From NCBI GenBank assembly GCA_034439715.1, contig JAWXAY010000027.1:9199-73198 (forward strand): a stretch of 64,000 nucleotides of DNA, in the 5' to 3' direction. The stretch comes from Pseudomonadota bacterium. Lineage in GTDB: Bacteria > Bdellovibrionota > Bdellovibrionia > Bdellovibrionales > SG-bin7. The notes under the pieces are model-generated. The model was not told the origin of the DNA. It ran no database searches and saw nothing but the letters and a program-made list of their open reading frames with translations. Shown in pieces: positions 6,072 to 30,603 of this stretch; position 1 is the stretch's first letter; each line of letters opens with the position of its first letter. The position numbers and the translations under genes are program-made.

Positions 6072-6117
6072 AGGATACAAGGACCCTATTTATAATTCAT
6101 TGAGTATTAATGAGCCA
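6072..6117 (-). promoter_or_regulatory. TGAG-N6-TGAG box plus -10 element upstream of module A
   Basis: TGAGTATTAATGAGCCA at 6101-6117 (+). Minus-strand TATCCT at 6072-6077 is 25 bp from the box, the same spacing as at three other sites. Confidence 0.7.
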
Positions 6118-7596: not shown

Positions 7597-7612
7597 TGCA
7601 AAAAAAAGGCCA
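7597..7612 (-). promoter_or_regulatory. Possible sigma54 -24/-12 promoter for the PA14 gene
   Basis: Minus strand TGGCCTTTTTTTTGCA (GG-N10-GC), about 37 nt upstream of ATG 7560. Confidence 0.45.
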
Positions 7613-7649
7613 CATCTCTGGGTGGGTGGGAGAGACTTGTGACTCTATT
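7600..7649 (-). ncRNA. Candidate small RNA, copy 1 (C-rich loop hairpin plus U8 tail)
   Basis: Hairpin at 7609-7643 with loop CCCACCCACCC and U-tract at 7600-7607. Upstream -10 TAGTAT (7656-7661) and box at 7685-7701. Paralog at 26249-26299. Confidence 0.55.
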
Positions 7650-7655
7650 TTATTA

Positions 7656-7715
7656 ATACTACGTGGTTCAAATGGTGAATTAAATGAGTATTAATGAGCC
7701 ATTGAACAATGGCTC
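7656..7715 (-). promoter_or_regulatory. TGAG-N6-TGAG box plus -10 element in front of sRNA copy 1
   Basis: TGAGTATTAATGAGCCA at 7685-7701, extended by inverted repeat GAGCCATTG-AA-CAATGGCTC. 25 bp to -10 TAGTAT. Confidence 0.7.
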
Positions 7716-7741
7716 GAATTGAAAATATTTTTTTAAAGGAA

Positions 7742-9307
7742 TTAAGCCCTTAACAAAAAGTTCAGCTCTGGCGCGGGTTGAACATCCGAATAGCTGTTAT
7801 AAACCGCAGCCGGGATTCCTAATGATTTGGCGACTGTTTTCCAAACGCTGGCACCAGAAACTCGCCCGCTGTTATCAGTAGAACCATTGGCCATAGTAAC
7901 GCCATTAGCATCAGGCCTATGATAACTAAATGTGTAACTCGTACCATTATTCGCCGCTATGCGGATATCTCCGTAATAACCACCTCTTATTCGACCACCA
8001 GCGAGAACTACGGCATTTTTACCGCGATCACCGAACGATTCACATTCAATACCTCGGCCACCGTCGGTGGTATAAATTGCAATCAGTGTTCGATCGTAAA
8101 CGCCTCGGGCTTTAAGTGTCTCGATAAGTCGAGCTAACGGAAGTGCAAACTGCTTAGACTGCGCTAGCATGGCTGCTTCTGGACGTGAACCGTGAACATC
8201 TCCGTAACAAAATTCCAAAGCCACGGTCCGCAAAGCTGCTGCCGAAACAAGTTTTGCTGCGTAAGCCGCTTGTTCCCAAATTGAGGCCACTGAACCACCA
8301 AAAGTAGTAAAACCCACATCAGGTACACCGGAACTCCAATACTGTCTTTCTAGAGCAGTCAGATTTAAATTTAGAGCAGTAGTAGGCCGCGCTAACTTAG
8401 AATTAAAGTTTTGTATTTGGGTTAAGTGATCACTCGAAGCCAAGTCAGTATATTTAAGTCTATTTAAAAAACTCGCATCCACTCTGTTCAACAATCTTGT
8501 AACTAAATCTTTTTGTTGAGCCAAAATGGAAGTGGCACTAGTCACATTGGCAAAGTTACTCAACAAAGTAGGCGTATCCGTAATTCTGTCAATTTGTGCG
8601 TCTACTAAATTAGCGGCGTGATGGTAAATGGCATGTTTACGGTCGCCGCGACCTAAACCCTTATAGGCAATTCCACGTCTTAAATTTCGATCGAGTTGCC
8701 TTTGATGAAAATTATGAAGAATGGCTGAGGTCGGCGTAGCACTGTAATGTCGCTCATTGCCGCCAAAGTCTCCCGCTTGAATAGCTGGTGAGAACTGACC
8801 GTCAATGTTCCACATTGACGTGCGTCCCGCACCTGCGTTGTAGTTTCGCCCTGGAGAACGTAAAGCGTTTGCCGCCTCATGGCCATGAATCGTTCCCATA
8901 GATAGCTCACCCACTTCGATAACGGCAATTGAATCCAAATGAGGAATCAAAGAAAGTCCATCTGTACCAAGATAAAAATTATTGCCACCTCTTCGCAAAG
9001 TATTAGGATCCTGTGACAATGCCACATTTCGGCCTGTGAAACCCCGACGAAGATTCGGATAAGTCGCGAGGCCCGGCGCCACAATGGCATTTAAAAAATC
9101 GAATTGATCTCGTAAATTAATTTCTATAAAATTTGTAGGAATTGTACTTTCAAAACTTTGAGCGTAGGCCTCGCCCATAACTATATCCAAGCAACCAAAA
9201 CGTAGCGCTGGGGGCACAAATGGTGAAGCCAAGACTAGTCCCAATATTTTTAAGAACTGTCGACGTTCTGTAATAGGCATTCTCTCAAAATCTAAAGGTT
9301 TTTTCAT
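7742..9307 (-). CDS. Tat-exported DUF1501-like protein, module B
   Basis: Probable ATG at 9307. ERRQFLK, signal ending AYA-Q, YGDVHG, LKARGVYDRTLIAIYTTDGGRG, VLAGGRIRGGYYG. Confidence 0.7.
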   Translation of the reverse strand: MKKPLDFERMPITERRQFLKILGLVLASPFVPPALRFGCLDIVMGEAYAQSFESTIPTNFIEINLRDQFDFLNAIVAPGLATYPNLRRGFTGRNVALSQDPNTLRRGGNNFYLGTDGLSLIPHLDSIAVIEVGELSMGTIHGHEAANALRSPGRNYNAGAGRTSMWNIDGQFSPAIQAGDFGGNERHYSATPTSAILHNFHQRQLDRNLRRGIAYKGLGRGDRKHAIYHHAANLVDAQIDRITDTPTLLSNFANVTSATSILAQQKDLVTRLLNRVDASFLNRLKYTDLASSDHLTQIQNFNSKLARPTTALNLNLTALERQYWSSGVPDVGFTTFGGSVASIWEQAAYAAKLVSAAALRTVALEFCYGDVHGSRPEAAMLAQSKQFALPLARLIETLKARGVYDRTLIAIYTTDGGRGIECESFGDRGKNAVVLAGGRIRGGYYGDIRIAANNGTSYTFSYHRPDANGVTMANGSTDNSGRVSGASVWKTVAKSLGIPAAVYNSYSDVQPAPELNFLLRA

Positions 9308-9308
9308 A

Positions 9309-10388
9309 TTATTGCCCCGCCATAAGTAAAGAACCAATAACCATCGGATGTCTTAAGCTCTCGAAAACAATCTGTTTAAAACTGGGGTCCTGATATTTTT
9401 GCTTTAGTTTGGCAGAAATATCTTTGACCACCCCACGATTAATAGTTTCATTGCCGTCTGTAAGTCGAATAAAGTACCGAACAGAGTTTCTAACGGAACA
9501 TTCTGTAAAATTAGCATTATTCACCAAGGCTTGAGCAGCCTCTCTCAAATTATTTGAGGTCTGCCCAAACATTTGAGAAACTTCGGATCTCGCAAGGTCG
9601 GAAGTCACCATATGCGAAGTAAAAAGATCATTCACAGAAAGTCCGGGCTCAAGATTGGGATTTTGCAGGCCTGTGGCGGCAGCTTTATAAACTCCAAAAG
9701 CGTCAAATTTAACAAAAAATTGAGTGTGAGCACTGAATTGCCCATGGCACGCATAGCAAGCCGTACCATTGCCAAACTCTGCAGCTCCTATTGCTAAGTC
9801 AGCCGCAAACATAGGTATTAATGATTCTCTCGGCAGTCGCGGCTGTAAAGTGGTGGACATCGGATAAGACTGGCACGCAAACTGACGTAACGTATTACTA
9901 GCACGAGAAAGATTAAATCGTCCGCTATACTGCTTTAGAAAAGCGCGAGTCGTTAACACGCCTGCCACAAATGGGGAGCCCGTATCACAACTTATTCTCT
10001 GCCTATTATTATCAACACAGTAATCCGCTGTTAAGATTTCAGAGTAAGGCCGATTCTGGCGAATTAAATAATCGAGAAGATTTGCCGGAAGTTCATAGTT
10101 AATAGTGCCATCGTTTCCGCTAACACCGAGCTGGGTCTGAATTTGAATTCGGCTAGATTTAACAAAAAATTCAGAATCCACCCAAGACTGTAAAACTCTT
10201 TCTAAACCCACGTACCCCTCGCTCCTAAGGGTACTTCTCTCCGCAGCATTCAAGGGTCGACCAGTGAGCATCGAGCTCAGCCGCGCCATATAGTTTTCTA
10301 TCTGCTGCGGAGTAAACGAACTGGTTGATTGCGCTTGCGCACTATTCAATCCTGTCAAAACAACTAAAATAAATATTAGATTTTTCAT
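9309..10388 (-). CDS. Secreted mono-heme (CYACH) DUF1588/1585-like protein, module B
   Basis: Signal ending AQA-Q, YSEILTADYC, AGVLTTRAFL, CYACH, FTECSVRN. Confidence 0.7.
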   Translation of the reverse strand: MKNLIFILVVLTGLNSAQAQSTSSFTPQQIENYMARLSSMLTGRPLNAAERSTLRSEGYVGLERVLQSWVDSEFFVKSSRIQIQTQLGVSGNDGTINYELPANLLDYLIRQNRPYSEILTADYCVDNNRQRISCDTGSPFVAGVLTTRAFLKQYSGRFNLSRASNTLRQFACQSYPMSTTLQPRLPRESLIPMFAADLAIGAAEFGNGTACYACHGQFSAHTQFFVKFDAFGVYKAAATGLQNPNLEPGLSVNDLFTSHMVTSDLARSEVSQMFGQTSNNLREAAQALVNNANFTECSVRNSVRYFIRLTDGNETINRGVVKDISAKLKQKYQDPSFKQIVFESLRHPMVIGSLLMAGQ

Positions 10389-10948
10389 TGTGCTACATAC
10401 TCCAAAGAAGAAAGTGTTACATAACAGAGTACTTCGAGGCGAACGTCGTTTGATACGGCCAGTGCAGTTACATCATTTATATTACTTTGATCCTCAGCGT
10501 TCAAATCTCTTCCAAGAGCGGATTCTATAAATCCCCTAGCTGCAGCAGGAAAGGGGAATTTGGTCCGGAGTGCCAGCGATGAACAGTAAGGCTGAAGAGC
10601 TTGAGTCCATGAAGCCAATCGAGAGTCTGTCCAAGTTAAGTCTTGCGATACTCCTCTGGCAAAATCATAAGATCCCAATTCAATTTTTTTAGAATTAAGT
10701 TGAGCATAAAGTGCGACATCTGTGCTACCGATCAGAGAATTTAGTTTATTGATCCGAACATCAAACGGTAGAATTCGCACTGCACTCCTATCTATTTTAA
10801 AAAGACCAAGAGTTATTGACTCCGGAGGCACAAACAAGAATGATCCTGAAGAAGCGAGTTCTGACTTTTGGCTTTTAAAACCGCTGCAGTTACTATAAAA
10901 AACGGCGACTACAAACAAAGATGCCAAATAAATTATTGATCTTTTCAT
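10385..10948 (-). CDS. Small lipoprotein, module B
   Basis: ATG at 10948 overlaps the upstream stop (ATGA). VFYSNC signal. Helical C-terminus FIESALGRDL...LCYVTLSSLEY. Confidence 0.7.
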   Translation of the reverse strand: MKRSIIYLASLFVVAVFYSNCSGFKSQKSELASSGSFLFVPPESITLGLFKIDRSAVRILPFDVRINKLNSLIGSTDVALYAQLNSKKIELGSYDFARGVSQDLTWTDSRLASWTQALQPYCSSLALRTKFPFPAAARGFIESALGRDLNAEDQSNINDVTALAVSNDVRLEVLCYVTLSSLEYVAQ

Positions 10949-11928
10949 GGAACCTGCCAATCTTGTGCATGACATAGGGTTAAAAATAGAGAGCGCCAGC
11001 CTTCTATCGTAGGATATTGTAGAGTGGTTGTTTGATTGACTAGGCTTTGCAATGCCGTGGTCACAGTAACCGGAGCAGTTCTGCCAACATAAAATAACCC
11101 GTAGGCATTAGAAATTTGTCCCGCTGTTGGTAACACGGTACTAGAGCCCGCACCAGCAAGTCCTCGAGCAAACTCTACCGCACCATCGTTAGATAATATT
11201 TTATCGCACGTACGATAGACTAGTGCTGCGCGGGGTGACGTCATGCCTGGTATTATTGCGGCCTGACTTTCTGCAGAGCTGCACCCAAATGAGTAAGAAT
11301 CACAAGGTCCACCAAATTGTATCACATTATCTGCAATCGCACCTTTGGTTAATGGCGCTGCCACTGGTCCAAAAATTTCATTTAAAGTAGTGGCTACATA
11401 GCTTCGCGTTTCCAAGCGAATCACCCTTCTCACTCCCGTCGTGCCGCCCTTTGGGGGAGGCGGATTGGCGCCATTCTTTTTTTCATATGCCGCCCAGGTA
11501 ACCAAGGCCGCTGACATCTCTGAACCGTCGCTCGTACAAAACTGAGCATTGGCAATATCACTCTTACGGCAATGATTATTTTTTGATTGTTCTATAAAAT
11601 AAGAATTTAATACATTTTCGAAATCGGCATATTTACGATTGTCAGATGTTTGTCCCGCCTTAGAAATCTCGTAGGACAAGTTGAGATCATTTTGCGCAAA
11701 TAAAGGCTGTTGATTTGCACTGTGGCAACCTGCGCAGTTTTTTCTGGTGACGGCGTAAACAGAGGTGCGAAAAACTTCTTTGGCCAGTAAGATGTCAACT
11801 GATGACTGGCTATTACTGCCAAATTCGTCACTTTTAAGTGAAGTAAATTTGCTGCAGTTTTGAAAACCCATCAATAGCGTCAAGCCCAGTGCTAGAAAAG
11901 CTATTATAAGTTTAACGTTAAATTTCAT
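10945..11928 (-). CDS. Mono-heme cytochrome c lipoprotein, module C
   Basis: MGFQNC signal, CAGCH. Paralog of 15444-16391 (both end LC..xDWQVP). Confidence 0.75.
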   Translation of the reverse strand: MKFNVKLIIAFLALGLTLLMGFQNCSKFTSLKSDEFGSNSQSSVDILLAKEVFRTSVYAVTRKNCAGCHSANQQPLFAQNDLNLSYEISKAGQTSDNRKYADFENVLNSYFIEQSKNNHCRKSDIANAQFCTSDGSEMSAALVTWAAYEKKNGANPPPPKGGTTGVRRVIRLETRSYVATTLNEIFGPVAAPLTKGAIADNVIQFGGPCDSYSFGCSSAESQAAIIPGMTSPRAALVYRTCDKILSNDGAVEFARGLAGAGSSTVLPTAGQISNAYGLFYVGRTAPVTVTTALQSLVNQTTTLQYPTIEGWRSLFLTLCHAQDWQVP

Positions 11929-11953
11929 TTTTAGATTTCCCCAAATTCTACAG

Positions 11954-13726
11954 TTAGGATCTATTTTTTGCCAGCTCCACGTTATTCACAATGCCACTAG
12001 TGGCAGTTTCAAGAACCAAAGAACTATTATTAGGATTAATTTTTTCAACTCGTAAAAGATGCGACACGGTCGACGAAATGTGGCCTATGCCTAAGGTAGT
12101 ACTGGCACCATCTATTGTAACGGGTGCCGCCAATCCCCAACCGCCCCAGTTTCCAAAACCATTTCCGCCATTGTTAAGACAGTTGCCAACGACCATGGGT
12201 TTCTTAATGGCTCCCGAAATAAGTGTCGTATTAGAGTTTCTGGATTCATGACCTGTGCTACCGTCTGACCCCGGGTTTCTGCCAAAATCAGAGGAGATCT
12301 GAAAAACCGTTTCATCAAATAAGTTTTTAGACTTAAGCTGGCTAATCATTTCATAAAGACAAGCCGAGAGTGCGGTAAAAATAAATGAGTTTATAATAAG
12401 TCCCGTCCAAGCTCCTCCGCCGTGGGCATCGCCGTTCCAGTAGCCATTTCTTGAAACTATTTGTCCGCTATCAAAATCAACTGAATTTTGAACCAAAAGA
12501 CTTTTTGTCTCACCTAAACTCATTCGTGCCGAACTCGAATAGCCATTGACGATTAAGAATTCAGCGACAGCAAAGCTCTCTGCAACCTCATCTATCATAG
12601 TGCTAGCTTGTATCATCGTCGCCAAATTTGCGTTCCTGACTTCCATTATATCAGGAATTCTAAGTTGAACTCGGAATCCATTATACCTGGCTTCGTTGTT
12701 AGTCTGGGGAGCAATATTTGCTGTAGATACCGGTTTATCAGTAATTCCTGGCATTGCTGTAGTCGCACACCTGGCAATGAGACCTCTGTATTTTGCTAAA
12801 AGCTGTTGGTAAACCGGTAGCAAATTTGTAATACCTTGCTTAATTAATGGCTCGGCAGAATTTCGAACCGAAAATAAAGCTTCTGAGCCCGGATACCTAG
12901 ACTTTGCAATAATACCTAACTGTGTGAGCGCGCCTTTGAGTGCAGAATCAATCGCATCACGTCGTGACATAAAAGTTGCAGAAAGCCCGTCGTTAACAAC
13001 TCTATTCGGAAGAAAGGGATTGTAATCACCTGAGCGAGCAAAAGGTGCTAATAATTGATTGAGTGGATCTCCACCAGTACATGTAGCTATGCCGCCGCCC
13101 ATGCCTGAACGAAAGTTATTAGCGCCGCCAAACGAAACTGCAGGTAGTGATTTTGTTGAACGATCAGCCACCAAGCCATCTAAACTTGGTGCTGAGCCGG
13201 AAGGCCTAATTTGCATTGACGACGCCTCCGCGTGAAAATCAATAAGTCCGTCAAAGCTTCGCATCATTAACATATTGTCCAAAAGGCTTTCCATCGGAAC
13301 CACACCGCCATTTGAAGTGGGAATATTTGATCCCCACAAGTGTGGCATATTTAAAGTTACACCATTTCGGGTAATAGCTCTTGTGGCATATATCGGATTA
13401 TCGTAAAAACCACCTCTGTCGGTAAATCTGGTAAATACATGGGCCGTCCTAGCATCGGGTTGTATGATGCTTGTATTGGATTCGTAAGGAACTAACGGCT
13501 GATCCCAATACCAACGGGTCATTCCCCCGCCGAGATGTAAATAGACATAATTGCGCACTGGCAGACCCGAATTGACAGCTTGGGCATGTGCTTTATTAAC
13601 AAGTCCATCGACTAAGCCATCCATTAATAGTTGCATGGGTCCGAGAGCGACTCCCACGCGGCCAATGGACTTCATGAAGTCTCGACGGCTCATTGCAGGC
13701 TGTTTTTTTTGTTGACGTTTTTTCAT
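11954..13726 (-). CDS. Tat-exported DUF1501-like protein, module C
   Basis: SRRDFMK, signal ending AHA-Q, YLHLGGG, LKSKNLFDETVFQISSDFGRNP...TGHE. Paralog of 16403-18148. Confidence 0.75.
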   Translation of the reverse strand: MKKRQQKKQPAMSRRDFMKSIGRVGVALGPMQLLMDGLVDGLVNKAHAQAVNSGLPVRNYVYLHLGGGMTRWYWDQPLVPYESNTSIIQPDARTAHVFTRFTDRGGFYDNPIYATRAITRNGVTLNMPHLWGSNIPTSNGGVVPMESLLDNMLMMRSFDGLIDFHAEASSMQIRPSGSAPSLDGLVADRSTKSLPAVSFGGANNFRSGMGGGIATCTGGDPLNQLLAPFARSGDYNPFLPNRVVNDGLSATFMSRRDAIDSALKGALTQLGIIAKSRYPGSEALFSVRNSAEPLIKQGITNLLPVYQQLLAKYRGLIARCATTAMPGITDKPVSTANIAPQTNNEARYNGFRVQLRIPDIMEVRNANLATMIQASTMIDEVAESFAVAEFLIVNGYSSSARMSLGETKSLLVQNSVDFDSGQIVSRNGYWNGDAHGGGAWTGLIINSFIFTALSACLYEMISQLKSKNLFDETVFQISSDFGRNPGSDGSTGHESRNSNTTLISGAIKKPMVVGNCLNNGGNGFGNWGGWGLAAPVTIDGASTTLGIGHISSTVSHLLRVEKINPNNSSLVLETATSGIVNNVELAKNRS

Positions 13727-15198
13727 TCTAACGACGACCTCCGGTAAGTGTCGGAATTCAGAATTTTCTGAATCAACTGCCTCAAACTTTGCGTCGACTT
13801 AAGTTCTAAACCTAACGAAATAACTATATCTCGATATTTGACTTCGTCAGCAGTTAGCGCCGGCTTAGTGGTATCACCAATGTCATTTAGATTGGCTTCA
13901 ATTCCTGTAAAGAATTTAAAGTACCGCGAAGCTGCGCAAACATACATTTCATTATTTACAGAAAAAGCATTACCCAAATCTTGGATACTAGAAAGATTCT
14001 GATTTATTAATCGACCGTCGTAGCTGCGATACAACAAAACACCGCTTGTCGGTCTACTATGAAACCTGTTGTCGCTGGAAACTGGCCCCGCCTCAGCTGG
14101 GTCTGTCGTCGGCCACACCGTCAGGTGCATGTGTGCGTCGTCAGTTAACATTGGTACAGAATTATAAGATATATGGCGTGCAACATAAGCTGTTCGGTCC
14201 ATACTAGCATGGCATTGCATACAATTCGAACTTTGTCGAAACGGGATCCCCGTTGCCTGCACAAAGGGTTCGGCATCAGCACGACGGATAAGCGGCAGAT
14301 CTCGGCACATAAAACTGTTATATCCCGCGCGTGCCCAACGGCGTGGTACGCGAAGTCCCCCGTCCATTGGGTAGTAGTCCGACCTTCCTAAATTTAACAT
14401 TAAAAAAGATTTGGTCCCTAGAACGCCACCACCTAAACTTTGATGGGGCATCATAGGTTGCCTAAGCTGAGCATAACCCTCAGGTGCCCCTTGGGCGCCA
14501 ATAACACTTAGATTAATTTTTGTAGGATTTAAAGTAATGGGACGTAAGCCGATCAGATCTCCGAATTGAACTAATTCTGACTGAATATTAACTCGCGCCG
14601 TATTTGTATAAGAGGCTGCCTGCGCCAAAGAAGTGCGCATCCCGATTGTGGCATTCGCTAGTGGACCTGTATAAGGTGGAGGTGGCGGATTTTGTATGGG
14701 ACCACTCGTTCTTAGAGCCTCCATTGAGTTTCTTCCAAGTACTACCTCAGAGTAATTTACACCTTGAGTAAATAGAGTTCTTGAAATATGAAGCGCGCTT
14801 TCGCCCTGGTCGTAAAGAAATCGAGTGGCAGCGTTAAAACTAAGTCCGTGAGGAATGGCAGTCCCAAAATTATCTGTCGGAAACCAACTTCGATGGAAGT
14901 CATTAAGTCTTTGTAAAACAAGTCGCCCCTGCGCCGTGTCCGAAACCAGACGGCCTTCTGAACCCGCGCCTGCTGATGAGGGCTGGAGTCTGGCACTATC
15001 GAGTACTTGCAAGCAGGCGTTTGCCGCAGTTAAGGTACCACTGTTTACACTTGCTCGTAGATTATGATTAAAGGGAAGTCGAGTTCCTGTTAGGTTAGCA
15101 TAACAACGGTTAAATAAGGCCAACTCACTTAAGTTTTCAATTTGCGCTGAGGCATTAAAACTAAAGAAATAAATAAGTGATAGTGCAGTAACTCTCAA
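13723..15198 (-). CDS. Secreted mono-heme (CMQCH) DUF1588/1585-like protein, module C
   Basis: TTG start behind SD GGAGGGGG. LSELALFNRCY, GGGVLGT, CMQCHASMD, YVCAASRYF. 491 aa, same length as paralog 18158-19633. Confidence 0.75.
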   Translation of the reverse strand: MRVTALSLIYFFSFNASAQIENLSELALFNRCYANLTGTRLPFNHNLRASVNSGTLTAANACLQVLDSARLQPSSAGAGSEGRLVSDTAQGRLVLQRLNDFHRSWFPTDNFGTAIPHGLSFNAATRFLYDQGESALHISRTLFTQGVNYSEVVLGRNSMEALRTSGPIQNPPPPPYTGPLANATIGMRTSLAQAASYTNTARVNIQSELVQFGDLIGLRPITLNPTKINLSVIGAQGAPEGYAQLRQPMMPHQSLGGGVLGTKSFLMLNLGRSDYYPMDGGLRVPRRWARAGYNSFMCRDLPLIRRADAEPFVQATGIPFRQSSNCMQCHASMDRTAYVARHISYNSVPMLTDDAHMHLTVWPTTDPAEAGPVSSDNRFHSRPTSGVLLYRSYDGRLINQNLSSIQDLGNAFSVNNEMYVCAASRYFKFFTGIEANLNDIGDTTKPALTADEVKYRDIVISLGLELKSTQSLRQLIQKILNSDTYRRSSLE

Positions 15199-15214
15199 GC
15201 TTCCCCCTCCTAAA

Positions 15215-15280
15215 ATAGTATCGGCAATTTGCGCTAAAATCTATGAGTTCTTATGAGCCAACAGTGTCTCGCTCTGATAC
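15215..15280 (-). promoter_or_regulatory. Composite promoter of the module C/B operon
   Basis: Box TGAGTTCTTATGAGCCA at 15244-15260, 25 bp from -10 TACTAT (15215-15220). Overlapping sigma28-like CATAGATT-N12-GCCGATAC at 15218-15245. Palindrome GTCTCG-CTC-TGATAC at 15266-15280. Confidence 0.65.
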
Positions 15281-15443
15281 ATGTTAGTTGCTGATTCTAC
15301 TAGGGTATGTTGCAATTCCTATTCCCGTCACAATGGGTTTTACGCGGCAACTGCAGGGTGTTTTCTGACACCTGTATGTTAGTTTTACGTTTTCTGTTAC
15401 TTAAAAAAAACAGATACACGTTGTTGAGTATCAGTTTTAATTT

Positions 15444-16391
15444 TTAAGGAACTTGCCAGTCAGGACTCATACACAAAGTTAAGAGGACAAAGCGCCACTG
15501 ATCCAAACTAACGTAAGCCTTTTGCTCCACACTCGTAGCTATCGCCTTAAGAGCTGTCGTGGTAGTTGTCTGCGCCAGCCTACCAGTAAAAAATAAATCA
15601 TAAAGAGACTGTATATCTCCGGCGGTTAATGTCCTCGCTGTGGCATCTGAACCCACCGCAAGTGTTACGGCATTAATAACCGCTGCATCACTTTGTGTAA
15701 TCTTGGTGCATGCTCTAATTGTCAAAGATTGCCGAGTCGGAGTTGCGGGACCTACTGACGACGCCTGAGATTCCCCGAGGTCGCGACAATCCCCGAAGTT
15801 TTGATTTCCATTAAAGTCTCTACTGTATTTGTCACAGGGGTCTCCATAATTACCGGCGTCGTTATCAACTAACCTAACAACCGGATCATTGGCAGTGGCG
15901 CCAAAAACATCACGCAACTTACTTGCGACAAATTTTCGACCTCCATGACGCGGTTGCGCGTCGGAGGCATCGACCCCAGGGCCAGAACTAAACTTCTCGA
16001 AAGCCTTCCACTTATTAATTTCATTTATCATTTCACTTCCGTCTGTCATACAATTAGAAAGCTTGCAGTGCCCATCCCTGATCTTTATGACCAACATTGA
16101 TCCTGGCACATTTGTAAAGTTAACCTTTGAGCGTGCTGCCATGTAAGCAACATCGACATCGGCCGCAGCATGCAACGGACTATTCTGTGTTTCGTGACAA
16201 CTAATACATTTAGAGCGTGTAATTAAATAAACTGTTTCACCAAATGCCTGCTGTCCTGACTTTTCAGATTTACCGGCATCCGAACTGCTAGAGAATTCAG
16301 ATTCGGAAATAGACTTAAACTTACCGCAGGAGTTATATAAAACCATGGGTAGTAGTAAAAAAATAATTATTTTCAAAAATTTGATTTTCAA
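15444..16391 (-). CDS. Mono-heme cytochrome c lipoprotein, module D
   Basis: VLYNSC signal, CISCH, HC...C.TDGSEM shared with 10945-11928. Confidence 0.75.
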   Translation of the reverse strand: MKIKFLKIIIFLLLPMVLYNSCGKFKSISESEFSSSSDAGKSEKSGQQAFGETVYLITRSKCISCHETQNSPLHAAADVDVAYMAARSKVNFTNVPGSMLVIKIRDGHCKLSNCMTDGSEMINEINKWKAFEKFSSGPGVDASDAQPRHGGRKFVASKLRDVFGATANDPVVRLVDNDAGNYGDPCDKYSRDFNGNQNFGDCRDLGESQASSVGPATPTRQSLTIRACTKITQSDAAVINAVTLAVGSDATARTLTAGDIQSLYDLFFTGRLAQTTTTTALKAIATSVEQKAYVSLDQWRFVLLTLCMSPDWQVP

Positions 16392-16402
16392 AATATCACT
16401 TC

Positions 16403-18148: not shown

Positions 18149-18157
18149 GTTTCTCCT

Positions 18158-19633
18158 CTATAACCGCTGCGCTGAACTTCGATATAAGTCACTACTAAAA
18201 ATTGATTGAATGAGAGCTTTTAAATTTTGACTATTTTTTAAATCCAAGCCTAATTTTATGACGATGTCTCGGTAAGATTTTTCACTACTGCTCAATGCTG
18301 GCAAACTCGTGTCTCCGGGATCCTGCAAATTGACTTTGATCCCGGTAAAAAACTGAAAATATTTAGCAGCCGTACATACATATAGATCTTCGGTTTCCGA
18401 AAGCGCTTCTCCTAGAGTTGCTAGGCTGCTAACTTGTCGATCGATGAGATTTCCGTTATAACTCCGATAATATAATTTCCCGTTAGTGGGGCGCTGAAAA
18501 TAACTAGAATCGGCGTCTACAAAGCCATTCTCTGCAGGTTGAGTTGCTGCCCACTTTCTAGTATGGACTGTGCCGCCAAATAAAACATAGGAGTTTGTAG
18601 CGTAACTAATATTGCGAGCAACACTTGCCATACCATCCATAGAGGAGTGACAACTCATACAACTACCGGCTTTACGAAAAGGCGGAGTCAATGCCGTAAC
18701 AACTGTTTGAATAAGTGGTGTTGCGTCGGTGATTCTAACGGCCGGAAGCTCACGACATAGTACATCGCTGTAAACAGCCTTGGCCCAGCGTCGATTCATA
18801 ACCAAACCGCCGTCGGAGGCACCCGTATCGGGACGTCCCAAATTTAATAACAAATAGGAAGGGGTTCCAATTATTCCCCCACCATGGGCTTCATTGGGAC
18901 GTAACGGCCCGGGACTACCAAAATATCTATTGGCAACCTCGGTACCATCTAAAGAATTTGTAACCAAATTTATTTTTTCTGTGTTCAAAGATAAACGACG
19001 AACTCCCAAAAGCTCGCCAGTCTGCACTAAAGGTGGATTCCAATTAACTCTCGTTGCCCCCGCATTTGGAACACTTGTAGACCACTGCTGCAGCTTATCG
19101 CCATTCAATGCGTTTCTATCGTAAGGCGACGGTCCAATAGAGCGCAGGGCTTCCATGGCACTATTACCTGTAACAATCTCAGAAAACCGGAGACCATTAG
19201 TCAGCAAAACGCGAGTGACATGTAATCCCGCCTCTTGCTCATCATGAATGTAGGGCTGGTAATTAAAATCCTCTAAAAAGGGAATGGCCTTCATAATATT
19301 ATCATTGGGAAACCACGAGCGATGAAAATCGTTCATATTTAATAACACTTGTTTTGCTTCGTCGTTACTGTTGACGAGGCTACCCTCGTTAGGCTGGGTC
19401 GCAATTAGTTGCACCCCATTGATAACTCTCATACAGGCATCTACAGCTTTAAGCGTACCAGCTTTTACCTGGGCACGCAGCGGATGAGAAAGTGGCAAAC
19501 TTTTTTGGGTGAGATGGGCATAGCATCGACTAAAAAGAGCTAGCTCTGAAAGAGGCTCGCGTGAACGATCCTGGCCGAGGGCAGAGTTCGACAATAAAAA
19601 TAATAGAATCCCCATGAAAACATGACTGGTCAT
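18158..19633 (-). CDS. Secreted mono-heme (CMSCH) DUF1588/1585-like protein, module D
   Basis: LSELALFSRCYAHLT, GGGIIGT, CMSCHSSMD, YVCTAAKYF. Confidence 0.75.
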   Translation of the reverse strand: MTSHVFMGILLFLLSNSALGQDRSREPLSELALFSRCYAHLTQKSLPLSHPLRAQVKAGTLKAVDACMRVINGVQLIATQPNEGSLVNSNDEAKQVLLNMNDFHRSWFPNDNIMKAIPFLEDFNYQPYIHDEQEAGLHVTRVLLTNGLRFSEIVTGNSAMEALRSIGPSPYDRNALNGDKLQQWSTSVPNAGATRVNWNPPLVQTGELLGVRRLSLNTEKINLVTNSLDGTEVANRYFGSPGPLRPNEAHGGGIIGTPSYLLLNLGRPDTGASDGGLVMNRRWAKAVYSDVLCRELPAVRITDATPLIQTVVTALTPPFRKAGSCMSCHSSMDGMASVARNISYATNSYVLFGGTVHTRKWAATQPAENGFVDADSSYFQRPTNGKLYYRSYNGNLIDRQVSSLATLGEALSETEDLYVCTAAKYFQFFTGIKVNLQDPGDTSLPALSSSEKSYRDIVIKLGLDLKNSQNLKALIQSIFSSDLYRSSAQRL

Positions 19634-19753
19634 CTGTATCCCCGACTCATCTATTAAGCTTAACTCTTGGTCTCTAAAATGTACACGAGCAAAAAAAAAC
19701 TAAAAAATAACTGTCTCAACTTGAGAAAACCTGTAAAAAAAATAAACAGTTAT

Positions 19754-21208
19754 TTAAACAATAAAGAGTTCCGGAATGTCGCCCGAGATCTCGCCCAATC
19801 TCGTGGGTCCACCGACCGCTTTCATGGCTGAGATCAATACTTTTGCGGGATGCTCTCCCCGTTTAATAATATGTTTACCAGGTTTTAATCCGCCCGCAGC
19901 ACCCGCGATAAGAACCATCATATTGTCTGTAGAGTGTGAGCCAATATCTCTGACATCCCCACCAGCATTATCCACAACGCCATGGCCACCCTCGAAGACA
20001 AAAGTCAACGCACAGTTGTCCAACATATTTCCAGCGCCCTCAGGAGTTGATTTAAGTTTATTAAGTAAATAACAAAAGTGTTCTATATGCCAGGCATGCA
20101 CAAGTGACATAGAGTAAGCATTAATTCCGTTTCCAGAATTCAAATTAGCAGCAACTTTAACAGATGGTGTTCCTGCCGGAGGGGCTGTTCGCCCGGCACC
20201 GTGGCCCAGCTCATGTTGATCACCAGCAGAATTACTTAGTTCAGGATAGAGTCCAGTCACACCCATGTGACTTTGTGCCGTGGTCAACATTTGTGTCGCG
20301 ACCCGAGAAGCATCACACACAAATGCCATATAAATTAAATCTAAGAAAATTCTATTTCGTTTAAATTCGTCACTGTAATTGGTGCCAATTGCGGGATCTG
20401 CGCCAGGATTCGCAAAAGGTTGACACGTGCCGCCGCTTGACAAGCTTTTTTCAAAATCACGAATTTGATCAAAATGTTGAGCCAGACGTTGTTGATCATT
20501 CACTCCGACCTCTGACAATATTTTTGTTCTCTGACCGGTAATAAAGTCAAGCACACTTCGCTTTTTAATAAGTGCTTGCTGTAGTTCAGGGGAACTTCCC
20601 GACGAAGTAAACAAGGCCTGATAAGCCCGAAGTGGCGAAGTTTCATTTCTCAGTCCCTGAATATTGCCGTTTCCCGCGTCCCTAAAAGTTAAAATTTCTC
20701 GACCAGAAAAATCAAATCCCTGCACATAAAATGCCGGAGAGGCTTGATAGTTGAGAGTGCGAAACTTAGACGTTGCGCCAATGATCTTAGATACAATTTG
20801 ATCTGCTCCTTCACTGCGTTGAGTGGTTCGAACTCCTGTTATTTGTGGGTAGTGACTGTCGGCATGAAATTCGCCATCGCGGCCACCCGGTAACCCGATA
20901 CCTGGAATAGTGAGTCCTGAAACAATGCTGATATCCCTCTGAAGATTGTATGTGCCCAAGGGTTTAAGTCCCGGAGAAAGAGGGAAGTTTCTGCCAAGCG
21001 CTGTGGGAATTGTAAAATTCAATGGGTCTCCATCAGGTCCCAACGACTGACCATCAAAGAATATTCCAAAGCGACTCGGCACTGGGCCGGCAGCAAAAGC
21101 ACCGTTACTATTTAACATGATATCTAATATTGGCAGTGAGAGCATAATTCCGCCCGCACCTTTTAAAAATGTCCTGCGATTCATTCGATGTATTTTCTGT
21201 GCACCCAT
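19754..21208 (-). CDS. Tat-exported DUF1552 protein, module E
   Basis: NRRTFLKGAGG...LPILDIM, RSVLDF, DQQRLAQHFDQIRDFE, AFVCDASRV, QHELGHG, EGAGNMLDN. Confidence 0.85.
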   Translation of the reverse strand: MGAQKIHRMNRRTFLKGAGGIMLSLPILDIMLNSNGAFAAGPVPSRFGIFFDGQSLGPDGDPLNFTIPTALGRNFPLSPGLKPLGTYNLQRDISIVSGLTIPGIGLPGGRDGEFHADSHYPQITGVRTTQRSEGADQIVSKIIGATSKFRTLNYQASPAFYVQGFDFSGREILTFRDAGNGNIQGLRNETSPLRAYQALFTSSGSSPELQQALIKKRSVLDFITGQRTKILSEVGVNDQQRLAQHFDQIRDFEKSLSSGGTCQPFANPGADPAIGTNYSDEFKRNRIFLDLIYMAFVCDASRVATQMLTTAQSHMGVTGLYPELSNSAGDQHELGHGAGRTAPPAGTPSVKVAANLNSGNGINAYSMSLVHAWHIEHFCYLLNKLKSTPEGAGNMLDNCALTFVFEGGHGVVDNAGGDVRDIGSHSTDNMMVLIAGAAGGLKPGKHIIKRGEHPAKVLISAMKAVGGPTRLGEISGDIPELFIV

Positions 21209-21209
21209 A

Positions 21210-22781
21210 CTACCGCCTTAAAAATCGATCAGAAGTTACTAATGCTAAAATAAGATCTTTTAAAAATCCCGTTTTATTAAATTCCGTCTGTAGGCCGGCC
21301 AACATTTCACTGTCTTTAGTTTCAGGCTCACTGCCCATGCCAAAGTGAAAGACTTGGCGCACAAAGCAGCTTTTAAATTGACTGGAGCGAATGAGAATCT
21401 CAGATAACTCAGCTGGACCCGAAAATGCATTTGAGCCAAATACTTGGCCCTTGCCCTCTATAAAACACGTACTTTTTAAGCTGCCATCACTATTATAATC
21501 AAACTCTCTATATTTACCAGTACGGTCAAAGCGCTCGAGTCCAAAGCCAATGGGGTCCATTTGTAGATGGCAGGCAAAGCAAGTGGACCCTTGCCGACGA
21601 TGTGAATCGTAGCGATTGTATTTACAGTCAGGCTGTCCAACAACCAATGGTGGAGGACTGTCAACATTTGTATTTGGGGGCGCTGGCGGTACGATTTTAC
21701 AAAGCAGTCGCTCAGTGACAAACTTCCCGCGCAGTGTGGGACTCGTGTCACCAAATTTAGGAACTGCCGACAAAAACGCCGCCGTGCTAAGTATGCCTTG
21801 TCGATTTGGAGGTAAACCTACGAGTGAAGGCGTACCTGTTAGACCTTGAATTTCATAAATATTGCCGAGCGTACTACTAATGGTTGTTTGGCGAGAGGTA
21901 AACAAATCCTGCCAAGGCTTTTGCTCCGTAACCAAAATGCGTCTTACCAGAGTGTCAGCCTCTTGTTTCATTGCTGCTGACAATATGTCTCCCGCCGGAA
22001 GTTTAGCATAACCTAACCAAAAGCCATGGAGCTTTTGAATTTGTGCGGGCGCTCTGGGCGAGGCCAGCATTGTACTTGCAACTTGCCGAACTTGGCTGGG
22101 AGTAGAAAGCTGCTGGCTTTCTGCTAATTTCAAAAGAGCATCATCAGGACCGCTGCCCCAGATAAAAAATGACAAACGGCTGGCGATATCAAAGTCAGTG
22201 AGGGTGGTTTTCCCTTCGATTCTATATAAAAATTTTGGATGCTGGAGAAAAACGCGAATGAGCATTTCGACACCCGCATCAAAACTTCCTAACTGTGTCA
22301 CCTGCTTTAAGCCATATGCTTGCAGCCCTGTAATTTCGTCTTGAGTAAGTGGTCTGCGAAAAAATAGTCGGCCTAATTTTTTTACTATTGATACAATACA
22401 CGTCTGATCTGCGCCTGCGAGGCCTGAGCAACCCAGAACACTTTGTTTTTTGGCGGGGTCGCTCATAAATCTTTGGGCTGCGTCGGCAGCAAAGTTGTCC
22501 AGACCCTGAATAAGCGGGGCTGAGGGATTTTGCTGGCGCACATCATTATCAAAGGGATTAGTTTCTTCAGCTGGCAAGAATGTCTCAGAACGAGATAAAT
22601 TGTCGTCTAAAATAAGTGTTAGGGACTTGTTAATTTCATCGTTTGTGAGGCGTCGAAGAGTGGGTTGGCCACTTAGAGAACTAAGTCCCGATTCGCTATT
22701 TTTAGTCGACTTAAACCCATCGCAATTTCCATAGAATACAATAAGAAAAGCTGATAAAAACAACCATCCTATAAATCTCAA
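21210..22781 (-). CDS. DUF1587/1595/1592/1588/1585-type heme lipoprotein, module E
   Basis: VFYGNC signal, LRRLTNDE, FFRRPLT, SRLSFFIWGSGPD, TSPTLRGKF, CFACH, DPIGFGLERFD. Confidence 0.85.
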   Translation of the reverse strand: MRFIGWLFLSAFLIVFYGNCDGFKSTKNSESGLSSLSGQPTLRRLTNDEINKSLTLILDDNLSRSETFLPAEETNPFDNDVRQQNPSAPLIQGLDNFAADAAQRFMSDPAKKQSVLGCSGLAGADQTCIVSIVKKLGRLFFRRPLTQDEITGLQAYGLKQVTQLGSFDAGVEMLIRVFLQHPKFLYRIEGKTTLTDFDIASRLSFFIWGSGPDDALLKLAESQQLSTPSQVRQVASTMLASPRAPAQIQKLHGFWLGYAKLPAGDILSAAMKQEADTLVRRILVTEQKPWQDLFTSRQTTISSTLGNIYEIQGLTGTPSLVGLPPNRQGILSTAAFLSAVPKFGDTSPTLRGKFVTERLLCKIVPPAPPNTNVDSPPPLVVGQPDCKYNRYDSHRRQGSTCFACHLQMDPIGFGLERFDRTGKYREFDYNSDGSLKSTCFIEGKGQVFGSNAFSGPAELSEILIRSSQFKSCFVRQVFHFGMGSEPETKDSEMLAGLQTEFNKTGFLKDLILALVTSDRFLRR

Positions 22782-22801
22782 GTATCCCCCTTAGCACTAG
22801 T

Positions 22802-22829
22802 TTATCGGAAATTTCCTAAAAATTATCTA
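22802..22829 (-). promoter_or_regulatory. sigma28-like promoter for module E
   Basis: TAGATAAT-N12-TCCGATAA. Confidence 0.55.
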
Positions 22830-22833
22830 CGTA

Positions 22834-24033
22834 TTATTGAGCCGGCAGCCAAAGGCTGTAAACCCAAATAGGATCTCCAATAGAGTCTAGCGTTTCAATC
22901 ATTGCGAGCTGACCAGTTGCTTGATCGATCTTAAACGAAGTTAATTTTTTGGTCCGCATACCTGCCACATAAATATATCGACCCGAGGGATCAATCTCGA
23001 ACTCTCGCGGCACACCTTCAACTTTTTGCTGTCCCCTACTCGTTAAAAACCCACTTATGGGATCAATAGCAAAAATAGCTAGACTATTATCACCTCGATT
23101 TGAGGCATACAAATATTTTGCATCCGGCGTAATATGAATGTCAGCACAAAAATTGGAATTGCCGTTAACTCCTGCCGGGAGAGTTGAAAGTGAATTTTGG
23201 AAACTCAGCTGACCATTGGTCGGATCCTCAGAATAAACGGTCACGCTGTCTCCCAATTCGTCAACTACGTAAAGTAAATTCTTGGTGGGATGATGTACGA
23301 CATGTCGGGGACCAGAACCAATTGGCGCCTGAATTTTTGCCGGAGAATTAGGGGTCAATAAACCAGTCAATGAATTAAGTAAAAACTGCGAGATCGTATT
23401 TGCCACAGTGTTGGTGACATACACAAACTTACTATTTTGAGTGCTTATGGCAGCGTGCGAATTAGTGTCTGTATTTTGTGTGTCTGTTGGTGTTTCGCTG
23501 AGGCTGCCATCGGGCCGAATTGGCAGAACAACAACTTTGCTGTCGGAGTAAGAAGGTATCAACAGATTTTTTTGAAGGGAATCGACATGAATATAAACAG
23601 GATTGATGCCGATTGCCACCTCTTGCGAAAACGTCAGGCTTCCGTTGGCCTGATCAATGAGAAATGCCGCGACCGACCGTCTGGCACTCAAACCCGCATA
23701 GAGATATTTTCGATTGGGATGAATGCCGAGCGGTACAATTTCACCCGCGATGGAGGCTGCACTTGTCTGTGTAAGTTTCCCACTTTGGGGGTCAATAACA
23801 AAAGTAACTAGGTTGTCGACATCTTTATCGATAAGGGCCATAAACAAAAAAAACTTACCCTGACCTTTAGGCGGCAGCCCTGCGGGTATTGGATCGGGAG
23901 GCGCTGAACTTTCCAAAGGCAATTCAAAGCTGGCTTGATCTACCGTTGCCGTAAATTTATTGCAGTTGGTATAACTTAACACGAGCAATGTGAAAATCAG
24001 AATGAAATTAAACGGGCGACTTACTGCTGCCAT
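22834..24033 (-). CDS. Lactonase-family (Pgl-like) beta-propeller lipoprotein
   Basis: LSYTNC signal, GSGPRH, ADIHITPDAKYLYASNRGDNSLAIF, PREFEIDPSG. Confidence 0.85.
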   Translation of the reverse strand: MAAVSRPFNFILIFTLLVLSYTNCNKFTATVDQASFELPLESSAPPDPIPAGLPPKGQGKFFLFMALIDKDVDNLVTFVIDPQSGKLTQTSAASIAGEIVPLGIHPNRKYLYAGLSARRSVAAFLIDQANGSLTFSQEVAIGINPVYIHVDSLQKNLLIPSYSDSKVVVLPIRPDGSLSETPTDTQNTDTNSHAAISTQNSKFVYVTNTVANTISQFLLNSLTGLLTPNSPAKIQAPIGSGPRHVVHHPTKNLLYVVDELGDSVTVYSEDPTNGQLSFQNSLSTLPAGVNGNSNFCADIHITPDAKYLYASNRGDNSLAIFAIDPISGFLTSRGQQKVEGVPREFEIDPSGRYIYVAGMRTKKLTSFKIDQATGQLAMIETLDSIGDPIWVYSLWLPAQ

Positions 24034-26132
24034 GCACTCACCATGCTAAATGGTGGCTGTGGCTTTGAAGTTGTCGTGCCATCGCCGAGTTGTCCCGCGC
24101 TATTATTTCCCCAGCAATATGCTTGCCCCTGAACTACGGCACAGTTGTGATGCGTTTCATCGACGCTGCCACCTGCAAAGTAAGATACGTCCCCCGGGGG
24201 CAGTCCAACTACTTTTAGTGGTGTTGGCTTGGCGGTATTAAAATTAGCGCCGGGTGCGCCTTGACGATTGTCGATATCATTTCTTCCCCAGCAATACAGG
24301 TCACCACCTGAGATGGCACAATACCCGCCTGCGATCGCACCCAACATGGTGACACCAGAAAGCCCGATAACTTCAAGAGCTGTATTGGACGAATTCGCAA
24401 TGTTGGCAGGACCCTGCCCCAGGGCTCCCCAATTATATCCCCAGCACTTTACCGTAGCATTCGGCATTAATGTGCACATACCGGATGAAATTGCTGAAAG
24501 CTGTAGAACGTTTGAACCTGCAGGAAATGAAGTGGTTGGAATAGGCCGAGGGTTACAGCGAAGGGCTCTCGTGTTCACGGTAACAGGTCCGCAGTCCGAG
24601 TAGAAGCCGTATGAAACATTGGGGTTGGATACCGTAGGTAAAACCATTCCTTCGGTAACATATGGAAGACACACCTTATAACTAGCAGCGGGTGGATTAG
24701 CTTCTAACAGACGGGAACCTTGATCGCAGACGTTGAAATTGCCAAATCGAGAATCATTTAATCCCCAACACTTAACTCCGCCGTCCTTGACGCCACAAGT
24801 GTAGCCCAACCCTGTGGCTATTGAGGTCACCCCTACCGCCATGTCCAAAACAGGTCGGGCATCTGGGTAATCAAGTTCACCAACGTCATGTAGTAATCCT
24901 GGGGCCTCCGCAAAACCAAGTTGTCCATACCTATTGGCTCCCCAACAGAAAGCGGCACCGCCAGCAACAGCGCAGGAGTGGTTCACGCCCGCATAAATTT
25001 TGCTGACGTTACTAAGTAAATTGCCAGCTGTATCTCTCACTAAAACCGGTGTTTCAACATCGGCACCGCCATTATTACTGCCCGCTTGAAAATTTGAATT
25101 CCAACCCCAACACTTAACATTTCCGTTTTGTATGGCACAGACATGTTCCTTGCCGACAGATAGTGAAGTCACGCCCGAATTTAATCCGGGAACTCTGAGT
25201 GGCACCGAGCTTGAAACCACAGATGTAGGTTGGCCCAACTGCCGATTTTGATTACTTCCAAAACACTGCACGCCGCCTCTAACAATTGCGCACGTAAAAT
25301 TTATCCCCACGCCTACGGCAGTCACAAAAGGAGTGGGCGGTAGAACGGGTTCTACGCTCATGCGCCGACAGGTAGTTGCGACGGCATAATCTGTATTATT
25401 AATTGAGGTGACAAGGGTGCCGTTAAACACGATATTGTCGGCAGAATTATCGTCAACTCTAAAGTCAAATTTATACTCTGTAGAATAAAATCTGGTTTGG
25501 CTTCCTAAAGTAGACTTAATTACAGCAAAATCAGAAGTCCTTTGTGCGGTGACGGCTCCATTGACGAATGTGCCTAAATAAATCCTGCCCTTTTCTGTCC
25601 TTTGACTTGAGTTTAATCGAATGACAGCGTCAATTCCCACATTATTGTCCTTAAATTGACAAAAAGCCTCAGTGGCGTTTTCGATCGGGGCATTTTCGAT
25701 CGGGGCATTAACATCTTCCACCTTCTCGAATACAGAATTTCGATAAACTAAAAAATCTTCGTCAAATGAAGAAATTTGCACTCCTGAAGTGGCCAGTGGC
25801 GAGGTAAATGTTGTAACGGTACAGTTGTCTTTAGTAATCGCCAAGTCGGTACTGTTGACGGTCATTACCGCTTGGGCCGATTTTACGTTTGAGCAAAGAT
25901 AGTCAGGATATGTTCTAATATAATCACCCAGCTTAGGTTTACCATCAAAACCATCTCCGCCACCTTGTGCGGCCGTAACCTCAATCGATTTTTCACCAAC
26001 TGAACTGAACTTCACCGATTCTGAATTTGAACAGCTTTGGTAATTCATCGAAGATAGGAATAAAAAAAGAAAGGTCAATCTTCCAAACAGTCGAAATCTT
26101 TTTTTTGAGTGGCCTTCGCTGTTCAAAATCAA
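24021..26132 (-). CDS. RCC1-repeat lipoprotein
   Basis: MNYQSC signal, GGDGFDGKP, repeated H/T-C-A....G.V.CWG.N..GQLG units. Confidence 0.85.
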   Translation of the reverse strand: MILNSEGHSKKRFRLFGRLTFLFLFLSSMNYQSCSNSESVKFSSVGEKSIEVTAAQGGGDGFDGKPKLGDYIRTYPDYLCSNVKSAQAVMTVNSTDLAITKDNCTVTTFTSPLATSGVQISSFDEDFLVYRNSVFEKVEDVNAPIENAPIENATEAFCQFKDNNVGIDAVIRLNSSQRTEKGRIYLGTFVNGAVTAQRTSDFAVIKSTLGSQTRFYSTEYKFDFRVDDNSADNIVFNGTLVTSINNTDYAVATTCRRMSVEPVLPPTPFVTAVGVGINFTCAIVRGGVQCFGSNQNRQLGQPTSVVSSSVPLRVPGLNSGVTSLSVGKEHVCAIQNGNVKCWGWNSNFQAGSNNGGADVETPVLVRDTAGNLLSNVSKIYAGVNHSCAVAGGAAFCWGANRYGQLGFAEAPGLLHDVGELDYPDARPVLDMAVGVTSIATGLGYTCGVKDGGVKCWGLNDSRFGNFNVCDQGSRLLEANPPAASYKVCLPYVTEGMVLPTVSNPNVSYGFYSDCGPVTVNTRALRCNPRPIPTTSFPAGSNVLQLSAISSGMCTLMPNATVKCWGYNWGALGQGPANIANSSNTALEVIGLSGVTMLGAIAGGYCAISGGDLYCWGRNDIDNRQGAPGANFNTAKPTPLKVVGLPPGDVSYFAGGSVDETHHNCAVVQGQAYCWGNNSAGQLGDGTTTSKPQPPFSMVSAWQQ

Positions 26133-26175
26133 CCCCCGCGAGGTACATACTTTAGTCTAGATACTTACTTTAGTC

Positions 26176-26203
26176 CTATCGGACAGAACCAGTATAAATT
26201 TGA
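26176..26203 (-). promoter_or_regulatory. sigma28-like promoter for the RCC1/lactonase genes
   Basis: TCAAATTT-N12-TCCGATAG. Confidence 0.6.
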
Positions 26204-26248
26204 GGCGTATTTTATTTATTAATACCCTCTCATTTTGAGCCATTCAGG

Positions 26249-26299
26249 AAAAAAAAGCCGCAACTCTTGGGTGGGTGGGGAGAGAGTTGCGGCCTGTAT
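26249..26299 (-). ncRNA. Candidate small RNA, copy 2
   Basis: Perfect 11-bp stem GCCGCAACTCT/AGAGTTGCGGC (26257-26293), loop CTCCCCACCCACCCA, U8 tail. -10 TAATAT at 26306-26311 and box at 26335-26351. Confidence 0.6.
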
Positions 26300-26305
26300 T
26301 TATTA

Positions 26306-26365
26306 ATATTACCGCGCTCATTTCGATAAATACATTAGTATTAATGAGCCAATAAATTTAGCTCA
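26306..26365 (-). promoter_or_regulatory. TGAG-type box plus -10 element in front of sRNA copy 2
   Basis: TTAGTATTAATGAGCCA at 26335-26351, inverted TGAGC...GCTCA, 25 bp to -10. Confidence 0.7.
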
Positions 26366-26381
26366 TTTCAAGCTTTTAACT

Positions 26382-30590: not shown

Positions 30591-30603
30591 GCTACCACCC
30601 TTT

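Follow-up and report, generated by a model that had tools for sequence, protein, structure and literature searches.

Two candidate small RNA genes with C-rich hairpin loops in a secreted-protein island of an uncultured Bdellovibrionales bacterium, and a sigma-54-driven RNA of similar architecture across the order

Results

The island and its two hairpin cassettes

We analyzed a 64,000-nt stretch of DNA (the window) from a Pseudomonadota bacterium placed by GTDB in the Bdellovibrionales (assembly GCA_034439715.1, contig JAWXAY010000027.1, positions 9,199 to 73,198), with a genome (G000) of 3.26 Mb. The window carries a minus-strand island, at about 2978-31365, encoding DUF1592/DUF1552 pairs, three DUF1501-like proteins, a lactonase-type propeller, an RCC1-repeat protein and many probable lipoproteins. 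Two cassettes within the island are the subject of this study. A reading of the DNA made from its letters alone (the sequence-only reading) had proposed that each specifies a short hairpin RNA; both cassettes were confirmed, each on the minus strand, and share the order, 5' to 3', of a 15-nt box, 25 nt, a -10 element, TAATAAA, a hairpin with the loop core CCCACCCACCC and a tract of eight U residues (U8). The box, TGGCTCATTAATACT, is the same in both. The stem sequences quoted in that reading are correct, as are the Shine-Dalgarno (SD) sequences it placed before the starts at 6041, 15198, 22781 and 30590.

The first predicted RNA (sibling 1; 7600..7650, minus strand, about 50 nt) has a short AU-rich 5' end, a stem of 11-13 bp including a 2-nt bulge (7643-7609), the 11-nt loop CCCACCCACCC (core at 7630-7620) and U8 at 7607-7600. 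Its promoter (7656..7701, minus) comprises the box (7701-7687) and the -10 element TAGTAT (7661-7656), without a consensus -35, and the putative transcription start was placed from the position of the -10. Sibling 2 (26249..26300, minus, about 51 nt) has a 13-bp stem, a 15-nt loop, CUCCCCACCCACCCA, with the core at 26279-26269, and U8 at 26256-26249. Its promoter (26306..26351, minus) has an identical box (26351-26337) and the -10 element TAATAT (26311-26306), and begins 31 nt 3' of the stop codon of a candidate regulator gene described below. A sigma-70 promoter scan and a terminator scan missed the promoters and terminators of both siblings, the former because the -35 is poor and the latter because of an 8-nt limit on the loop.

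Each of the predicted RNAs (49 and 50 nt) folds into a single hairpin (z-scores of -2.6 and -7.6), and the loop is unpaired with a probability of at least 0.998, both in the short RNA and in the read-through context. Two exact copies of the loop 11-mer occur in the window, with three matches at up to one mismatch where shuffled sequence gives 0.40 on average; the three copies in the 3.26 Mb are the two siblings and one intragenic site. Among the 46 intergenic long-loop terminator hairpins of the genome, the siblings and a sigma-54-driven RNA (see below) are the top three for C content. A small open reading frame (ORF) in the sibling RNAs was ruled out, as none has an SD within 50 nt, and so was a plus-strand G-quadruplex, the G tracts numbering only three. 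Another terminator-like hairpin in the window, at 40671-40713 (minus; 13-bp stem, 14-nt loop ACCAUCACCAACUC, z-score -5.6), follows the gene of a 140-aa secreted protein and is loosely like sibling 2 in stem and loop; no box was found at the expected distance.

Between the siblings, the box (15/15), the loop core (11/11) and the -10 region (12/13) were kept, whereas the spacer has drifted to 13/25 and the flanks to 6/30 and, past the U tract, 11/30. All five stem substitutions preserve pairing, which five random substitutions do in 0.4% of simulations. The duplication would therefore be old enough to show selection, and the pattern is suggestive of selection acting on promoter, stem and loop. 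These observations bear on the alternative that the hairpins are merely terminators of the upstream operons, within a duplicated regulatory DNA cassette whose promoters are idle or irrelevant. Each hairpin indeed lies about 90-100 nt past a stop codon on the same strand, and the cassette was found in one genome only. However, a terminator requires neither the box nor an invariant loop, both conserved along with the -10 despite the drifted spacer, and 172 of the 197 terminator-like hairpins that follow genes have loops shorter than 10 nt. We regard this alternative as quite unlikely.

Box promoters and the candidate activator

Five boxes were chosen in the island by likeness to the 15-mer; two lead to the hairpins and three to mRNAs with a GGGGG SD and a TTG start, all on the minus strand. 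The promoter at 6072..6117 (exact 15-mer, -10 TATCCT) precedes a DUF1592/DUF1552 pair (start 6041, GGGGG SD); that at 15215..15260 (-10 TACTAT) precedes a DUF1501 cluster (start 15198, GAGGGGG SD); and that at 22799..22844, with the weakest box (-10 TAAACT), precedes a second DUF1592/DUF1552 pair (start 22781, GGGGG SD). A TAnnnT motif, with a background frequency of 0.017-0.03, stands exactly 33 nt past GGCTCA in all five, compared to at most one at each of 29 other offsets. For the three boxes that had not been noted beforehand as cassettes, the chance of this is about 0.03 cubed. The constant distance bears out the proposal that each hairpin has a promoter of its own. The five boxes are also the genome's five best matches to their position weight matrix (PWM); a sixth match, on contig C94, was set aside as intragenic. 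The box lies at about -51 to -36, and a consensus -35 is absent, which is the layout of activator-dependent sigma-70 promoters. A caveat is that a CCGATA (sigma-28-like) hexamer overlaps the -10 of the boxes at 15260 and 22844.

A genome of the same family (G003) has five sites with the box geometry, each no more than about 11 kb from a regulator homologue and most of them ahead of G-rich leaders; the spacing there is not independent evidence, because the PWM used included the -10. Across 280 genomes, the box pattern gave three matches in G000 and G003 only and one each in 15 others, and a control pattern matched in 22 genomes.

Since three box promoters do drive genes, we considered whether the other two serve the genes downstream of the siblings, with the hairpin as a conditional terminator in a cis-acting leader. 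Promoter, hairpin and downstream gene share a strand, and the U tract lies 40 nt from the start of gene 7560 and 123 nt from that of gene 26126. On the other hand, the stem begins some 5 nt into the predicted RNA, too short a leader for a sensor or an antiterminator; the sequences past the U tracts are unrelated; and the downstream genes, likewise unrelated to each other, carry promoter-like elements of their own. A separate CCGATA promoter serves the gene downstream of sibling 2, and homologues without a cassette have one too. Attenuation of this kind is very unlikely in our judgment.

The candidate activator is a 506-aa protein (26382..27902, minus) whose N-terminus is helical and TPR-like and whose C-terminal part holds two winged-helix domains. 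The first of these resembles the DNA-binding domains of PhoB and SaeR, although individual scores are weak. A model from a 19-sequence alignment reached a predicted local distance difference test (pLDDT) score of 90; the single-sequence fold was poor (pLDDT 52). We infer that this protein binds the GGCTCA box. It belongs to a family of TPR/double-winged-helix proteins of about 495 aa, present in 2-8 copies per genome within the taxonomic family (loci L035-L054) and lacking a Pfam model; the genes often adjoin those of FQNC lipoproteins with a GxDGKP motif.

A palindrome, GTCTCA-N3-TGAGAC, lies at about 6698-6712, 19713-19727, 26227-26241 and 26436-26450 of the window. Genome-wide, TCTCA-N3-TGAGA occurs at 28 sites compared to 2-9 at other spacings, many of them ahead of CCGATA promoters and the island boxes, and the genes that bear it are also enriched for GGGGG ribosome-binding sites. 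It is likely to be a global operator.

As for the rest of the window, two DUF1592/DUF1552 pairs are stacked with three DUF1501-like clusters between 2978 and 22781, and the last of these clusters has orthologues in 16 further genomes among the 384, with neighborhoods that are unrelated. The segment 42956-50122, with integrase, DUF3987 and PD-(D/E)XK nuclease genes beside a tRNA, is a probable integrated element.

An order-wide sigma-54 poly-C RNA

A scan for C-rich terminators revealed a third element in the genome, outside the window (G000:C60:9379-9436, minus), behind a sigma-54 promoter. The promoter-plus-loop pattern matched in 86 of 384 genomes, including 34 of 44 of one genus, and in 14 genomes when reversed as a control. 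The RNA is about 50-55 nt long and consists of a 5' C tract, one terminator hairpin of 10-13 bp with the conserved stem GCGGCCAGG/CCUGGUCGC, a poly-C loop of 11-20 nt and a U tract. From the loci collected (L128-L191 and L226-L251), 64 were examined, yielding 49 clean hairpins, 39 of them distinct; 32 sequences were aligned after leaving out seven near-duplicates. The 11-bp stem is 94% paired with double changes at five pairs, and its covariation score was reached by none of 500 shuffles, a result inflated by the relatedness of the sequences. The 5' C tract is present in 31 of the 32 members and is absent only from the copy in the window genome.

A model of the RNA alone (R1) gave one strong match (36-75 bits) per genome in 27 of 31 genomes of the order, several of which are training members; in 120 genomes of other orders it found no strong copy and five weak ones (22-28 bits). 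A sigma-54 box stands upstream of 15 of the 16 strong non-training matches, compared to 10 of 3,594 control positions. The RNA usually lies beside amidase-rph genes, facing the amidase gene or facing away from it depending on the family, and its neighbors are different in one genome (G013); the varied orientation and neighbors argue for a free-standing gene. It had no Rfam match over threshold, the closest being 6C (26.0 and 20.6 bits against 47), from which it differs in having one hairpin only. The order-wide RNA is thus uncatalogued and is common to most sampled species of the order.

The two siblings were the best matches of R1 in the window, at 12.9 and 12.0 bits (E-values of 0.27 and 0.48). 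The predicted RNAs share with the order-wide RNA a length of about 50 nt, a single terminator hairpin, an exposed C-rich loop, a U tract and the same genome; in contrast, the order-wide RNA has a sigma-54 promoter, a poly-C loop, a conserved stem and a single copy, and neither sibling has its 5' C tract. The siblings have its architecture but, scoring below the 36-75 bits of its members, do not count among them. In one family (f9), a distinct sigma-54-driven unit carries CAUCCCUCCCCCCUU before a short U tract (L178, L181 and L182, in G219, G031 and G221, and G011:C17:50219-50293). The filter found no clean hairpin there, and the unit may be a divergent version of the order-wide RNA.

Comparison with known RNAs

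The sequence-only reading had taken the RNAs for an undescribed family, and in Rfam 15 no family reached threshold for them, a tRNA being the sole above-threshold match in the window. The csRNAs of Streptococcus depend on CiaR, have a CiaR box and carry a conserved anti-SD stretch; no csRNA family was listed among the Rfam matches of the siblings. The best match of sibling 2 was Pseudomon-1/ErsA (RF01719; 25.3 bits, E-value 0.004, against a gathering score of 50), and sibling 1 had no match to it. ErsA also has a terminator hairpin with a long C-rich loop but, unlike the siblings, is extended by a long 5' region and has an additional hairpin.

The 6C (RF01066) and B11 RNAs of Actinomycetota are also alike in having C-rich loops, which are reported to pair with G-rich mRNA without a chaperone (6C, PMC6486639; B11, by the same mode, PMC10470900). 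6C has two hairpins and runs of at least 6 C, whereas in each sibling the terminator is the only hairpin and the loop, interrupted by A, has a longest run of 3-4 C; 6C was not listed among their Rfam matches at E-values of up to 10. LhrC1-5 of Listeria are described as multicopy siblings of 111-114 nt under one activator (LisRK), found genus-wide, with three CU-rich (UCCC) sites, blocking SDs independently of Hfq (PMC4132741). The siblings have a box and promoter geometry in common, so that they may likewise be under one activator, and carry a UCCC-type motif in the loop; they differ in length, in having one site, in having been found in one genome and in the TPR/winged-helix nature of the candidate regulator. 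The cuckoo/CcsR RNAs are described as repeated short alphaproteobacterial RNAs with the C-rich anti-SD loop CCUCCUCCC in a DUF1127 context (PMC8034643); they have at least two hairpins, compared to one, with the loop CCCACCCACCC, in the siblings. No DUF1127 protein, the neighbor of the cuckoo CIN1 subgroup, was found among the flanking proteins scanned, a scan that left out short ORFs.

For the order-wide RNA the nearest comparison is Pxr of Myxococcus (RF01812), which has a sigma-54 promoter, with binding reported near SDs (PMC5568312; bioRxiv 10.1101/2025.09.11.675593; see also PMC11928866), and likewise an Hfq-less predatory host. Pxr, however, has three stem-loops over 109 model positions, and its model (at least 80 bits) had no match over the cut-off in four genomes, none at the order-wide loci and none in G000 (best elsewhere, 17.6 bits). 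The siblings differ from it in having the box and TAnnnT in place of a sigma-54 promoter. A survey of Bdellovibrio reports eight attack-phase small RNAs (sRNAs) of 98-655 nt (PMC3627812); in the parts of that paper searched, none of the eight lies near the strain's rph gene at 2.62 Mb, the usual neighborhood of the order-wide RNA. In the literature searched, which leaves out most subscription papers, neither the sibling RNAs nor the order-wide RNA is described.

G-rich ribosome-binding sites and candidate targets

The target set comprised 2,920 crudely called genes, with start positions assigned in part from anti-SD pairing. A GGGGG SD, found in all three box-driven mRNAs, occurs in 144-146 of the 2,920 genes; it is present in 4 of 20 island genes compared to 142 of 2,900 others (p 0.016), and genome-wide it is enriched among FQNC-type lipoproteins and sigma-54-promoter genes (odds ratio 7 for each) and signal-peptide genes (odds ratio 1.8). 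An altered anti-SD in the 16S rRNA was rejected, the anti-SD being canonical, and no Hfq family member was found in any of the three genomes searched.

The 30590 gene (27930..30605, minus) encodes an 886-aa probable lipoprotein with the SD AGGGTGG and lies directly upstream of the regulator gene. It has four GGGTGG motifs in 2.7 kb, the SD and three at 28939-28909, a density that is fourth of the 2,920 genes (p 0.0036 uncorrected, not significant once corrected). This gene is the best candidate target, though not a significant one. As 27 nt separate it from the regulator gene, we hypothesize that its repression could be polar on the regulator.

Discussion

We propose, with moderate confidence, that the siblings are activator-induced, chaperone-independent, lineage-specific anti-SD sRNAs, in which the loop pairs with G-rich ribosome-binding regions. 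The cassettes are most likely paralogous genes for trans-acting sRNAs of about 50 nt that are barely more than a terminator hairpin with a C-rich loop. A discrete sibling transcript very probably exists and, given such a transcript, action by pairing is likely. The mode of action is proposed by analogy, because the loops of 6C, B11 and LhrC act in this way; the presence in the order of a free-standing RNA with this architecture also speaks for the proposal. The best reading would make the siblings a variant of the 6C/LhrC/cuckoo-type C-rich anti-SD sRNAs, found so far in one genome only.

In the proposed mechanism, the activator, probably the adjacent TPR/winged-helix protein, would bind the GGCTCA box near the -35 and switch on the five sigma-70-type promoters, a step that we infer strongly. 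Two of these promoters would make short RNAs ending at U8, the hairpins probably terminating the upstream operons too. By analogy, the loop would then form G-C pairs, without Hfq, with GGGUGG, GGGGG and GGGGAG ribosome-binding regions and lower translation. More tentatively, the targets may include island mRNAs, above all that of the 30590 gene, resulting in negative feedback.

Several results weigh against this proposal. The 30590 site, singled out in the sequence-only reading, forms 6 bp and ranks 92nd and 151st of 2,920 for siblings 1 and 2, respectively, and the three box-driven mRNAs with GGGGG SDs rank between 127 and 657. The A-interrupted loop is a better match to GGGUGG than to GGGGG, and no gene class tested is enriched for GGGTGG SDs; the motif is the SD of 1 of 20 island genes (p 0.12). 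A true test of covariation needs more than two sequences. In leave-one-out PWM scoring the 22844 box was poorly recovered, with 55 sites scoring as high. The idea of a post-transcriptional arm of the regulon is weakly supported, the island start regions pairing slightly better than the rest with the sibling loops (p 0.07 and 0.04).

Also adverse is the failure to recover the cassette elsewhere, by exact-match patterns that would miss an altered loop and in genomes that included none of the window's genus. It was absent from all three genomes of the same family and from 16 loci of DUF1501 orthologues, and a looser pattern over the 384 genomes matched 10 others, none with a clean hairpin. In metagenomes, two of 28 pattern matches were the window's own sequence and the rest were not the cassette; three matches in genome contigs were all due to chance. 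A comparable RNA was not found in G003, which has box promoters and a GGGTGGG leader. The proposed sRNA family across relatives was therefore not recovered, the cassette being known from this genome only, and the relatives searched show no conservation of the loop, an outcome that the sequence-only reading had named as counting against it. Viral contigs gave no match to the cassette pattern, and BLAST of cassette 2 against 41 genomes returned short chance matches only, the best one intragenic. For positions 21000-30500 of the window no sequencing run was listed, a neutral result. At two metagenome loci (L072 and L079) some hairpin forms, but no box was visible and there were no island proteins, and six more C-rich candidates (in G002, G003 and G092) were discarded as coding or non-folding.

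With no pairing target outstanding, the siblings might be transcribed and yet serve as ligands or decoys for a protein that binds C-rich RNA, such as a protein with KH domains that recognize CCCA repeats. A KH domain recognizes about four bases of such RNA, the loop holds three tandem CCCA units, and a KhpA-family protein is encoded in G000. Against this, the regulon mRNAs carry G-run SDs in both G000 and G003, the characterized C-rich-loop RNAs pair with mRNA, and no RNA-binding protein gene was recognized among the island proteins scanned. We consider a role as protein ligand unlikely. KhpA-family proteins over the cut-off number eight in G049, compared to one each in G000 and G003.

A broader version of the anti-SD proposal, which we regard as doubtful, is that the order uses G-run SDs as an address on mRNAs of secreted and envelope proteins, read by the order-wide poly-C RNA. 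Here the core RNA would have lost its 5' C tract, and the siblings, wired to the island activator, would read GGGUGG in the gene upstream of that activator with their CCCA-repeat loop, closing a negative feedback.

Riboregulation in Bdellovibrio-like predators is almost a blank. The siblings would be minimal sRNAs, in which the loop of a terminator is the whole seed, added within this lineage to a regulon of secreted proteins. More is to be gained from the order-wide sigma-54 poly-C RNA, which most sampled species have and Rfam lacks. Unlike the siblings, with their uncultured host, it occurs in many complete single-contig genomes and should therefore be deletable and assayable in laboratory strains.

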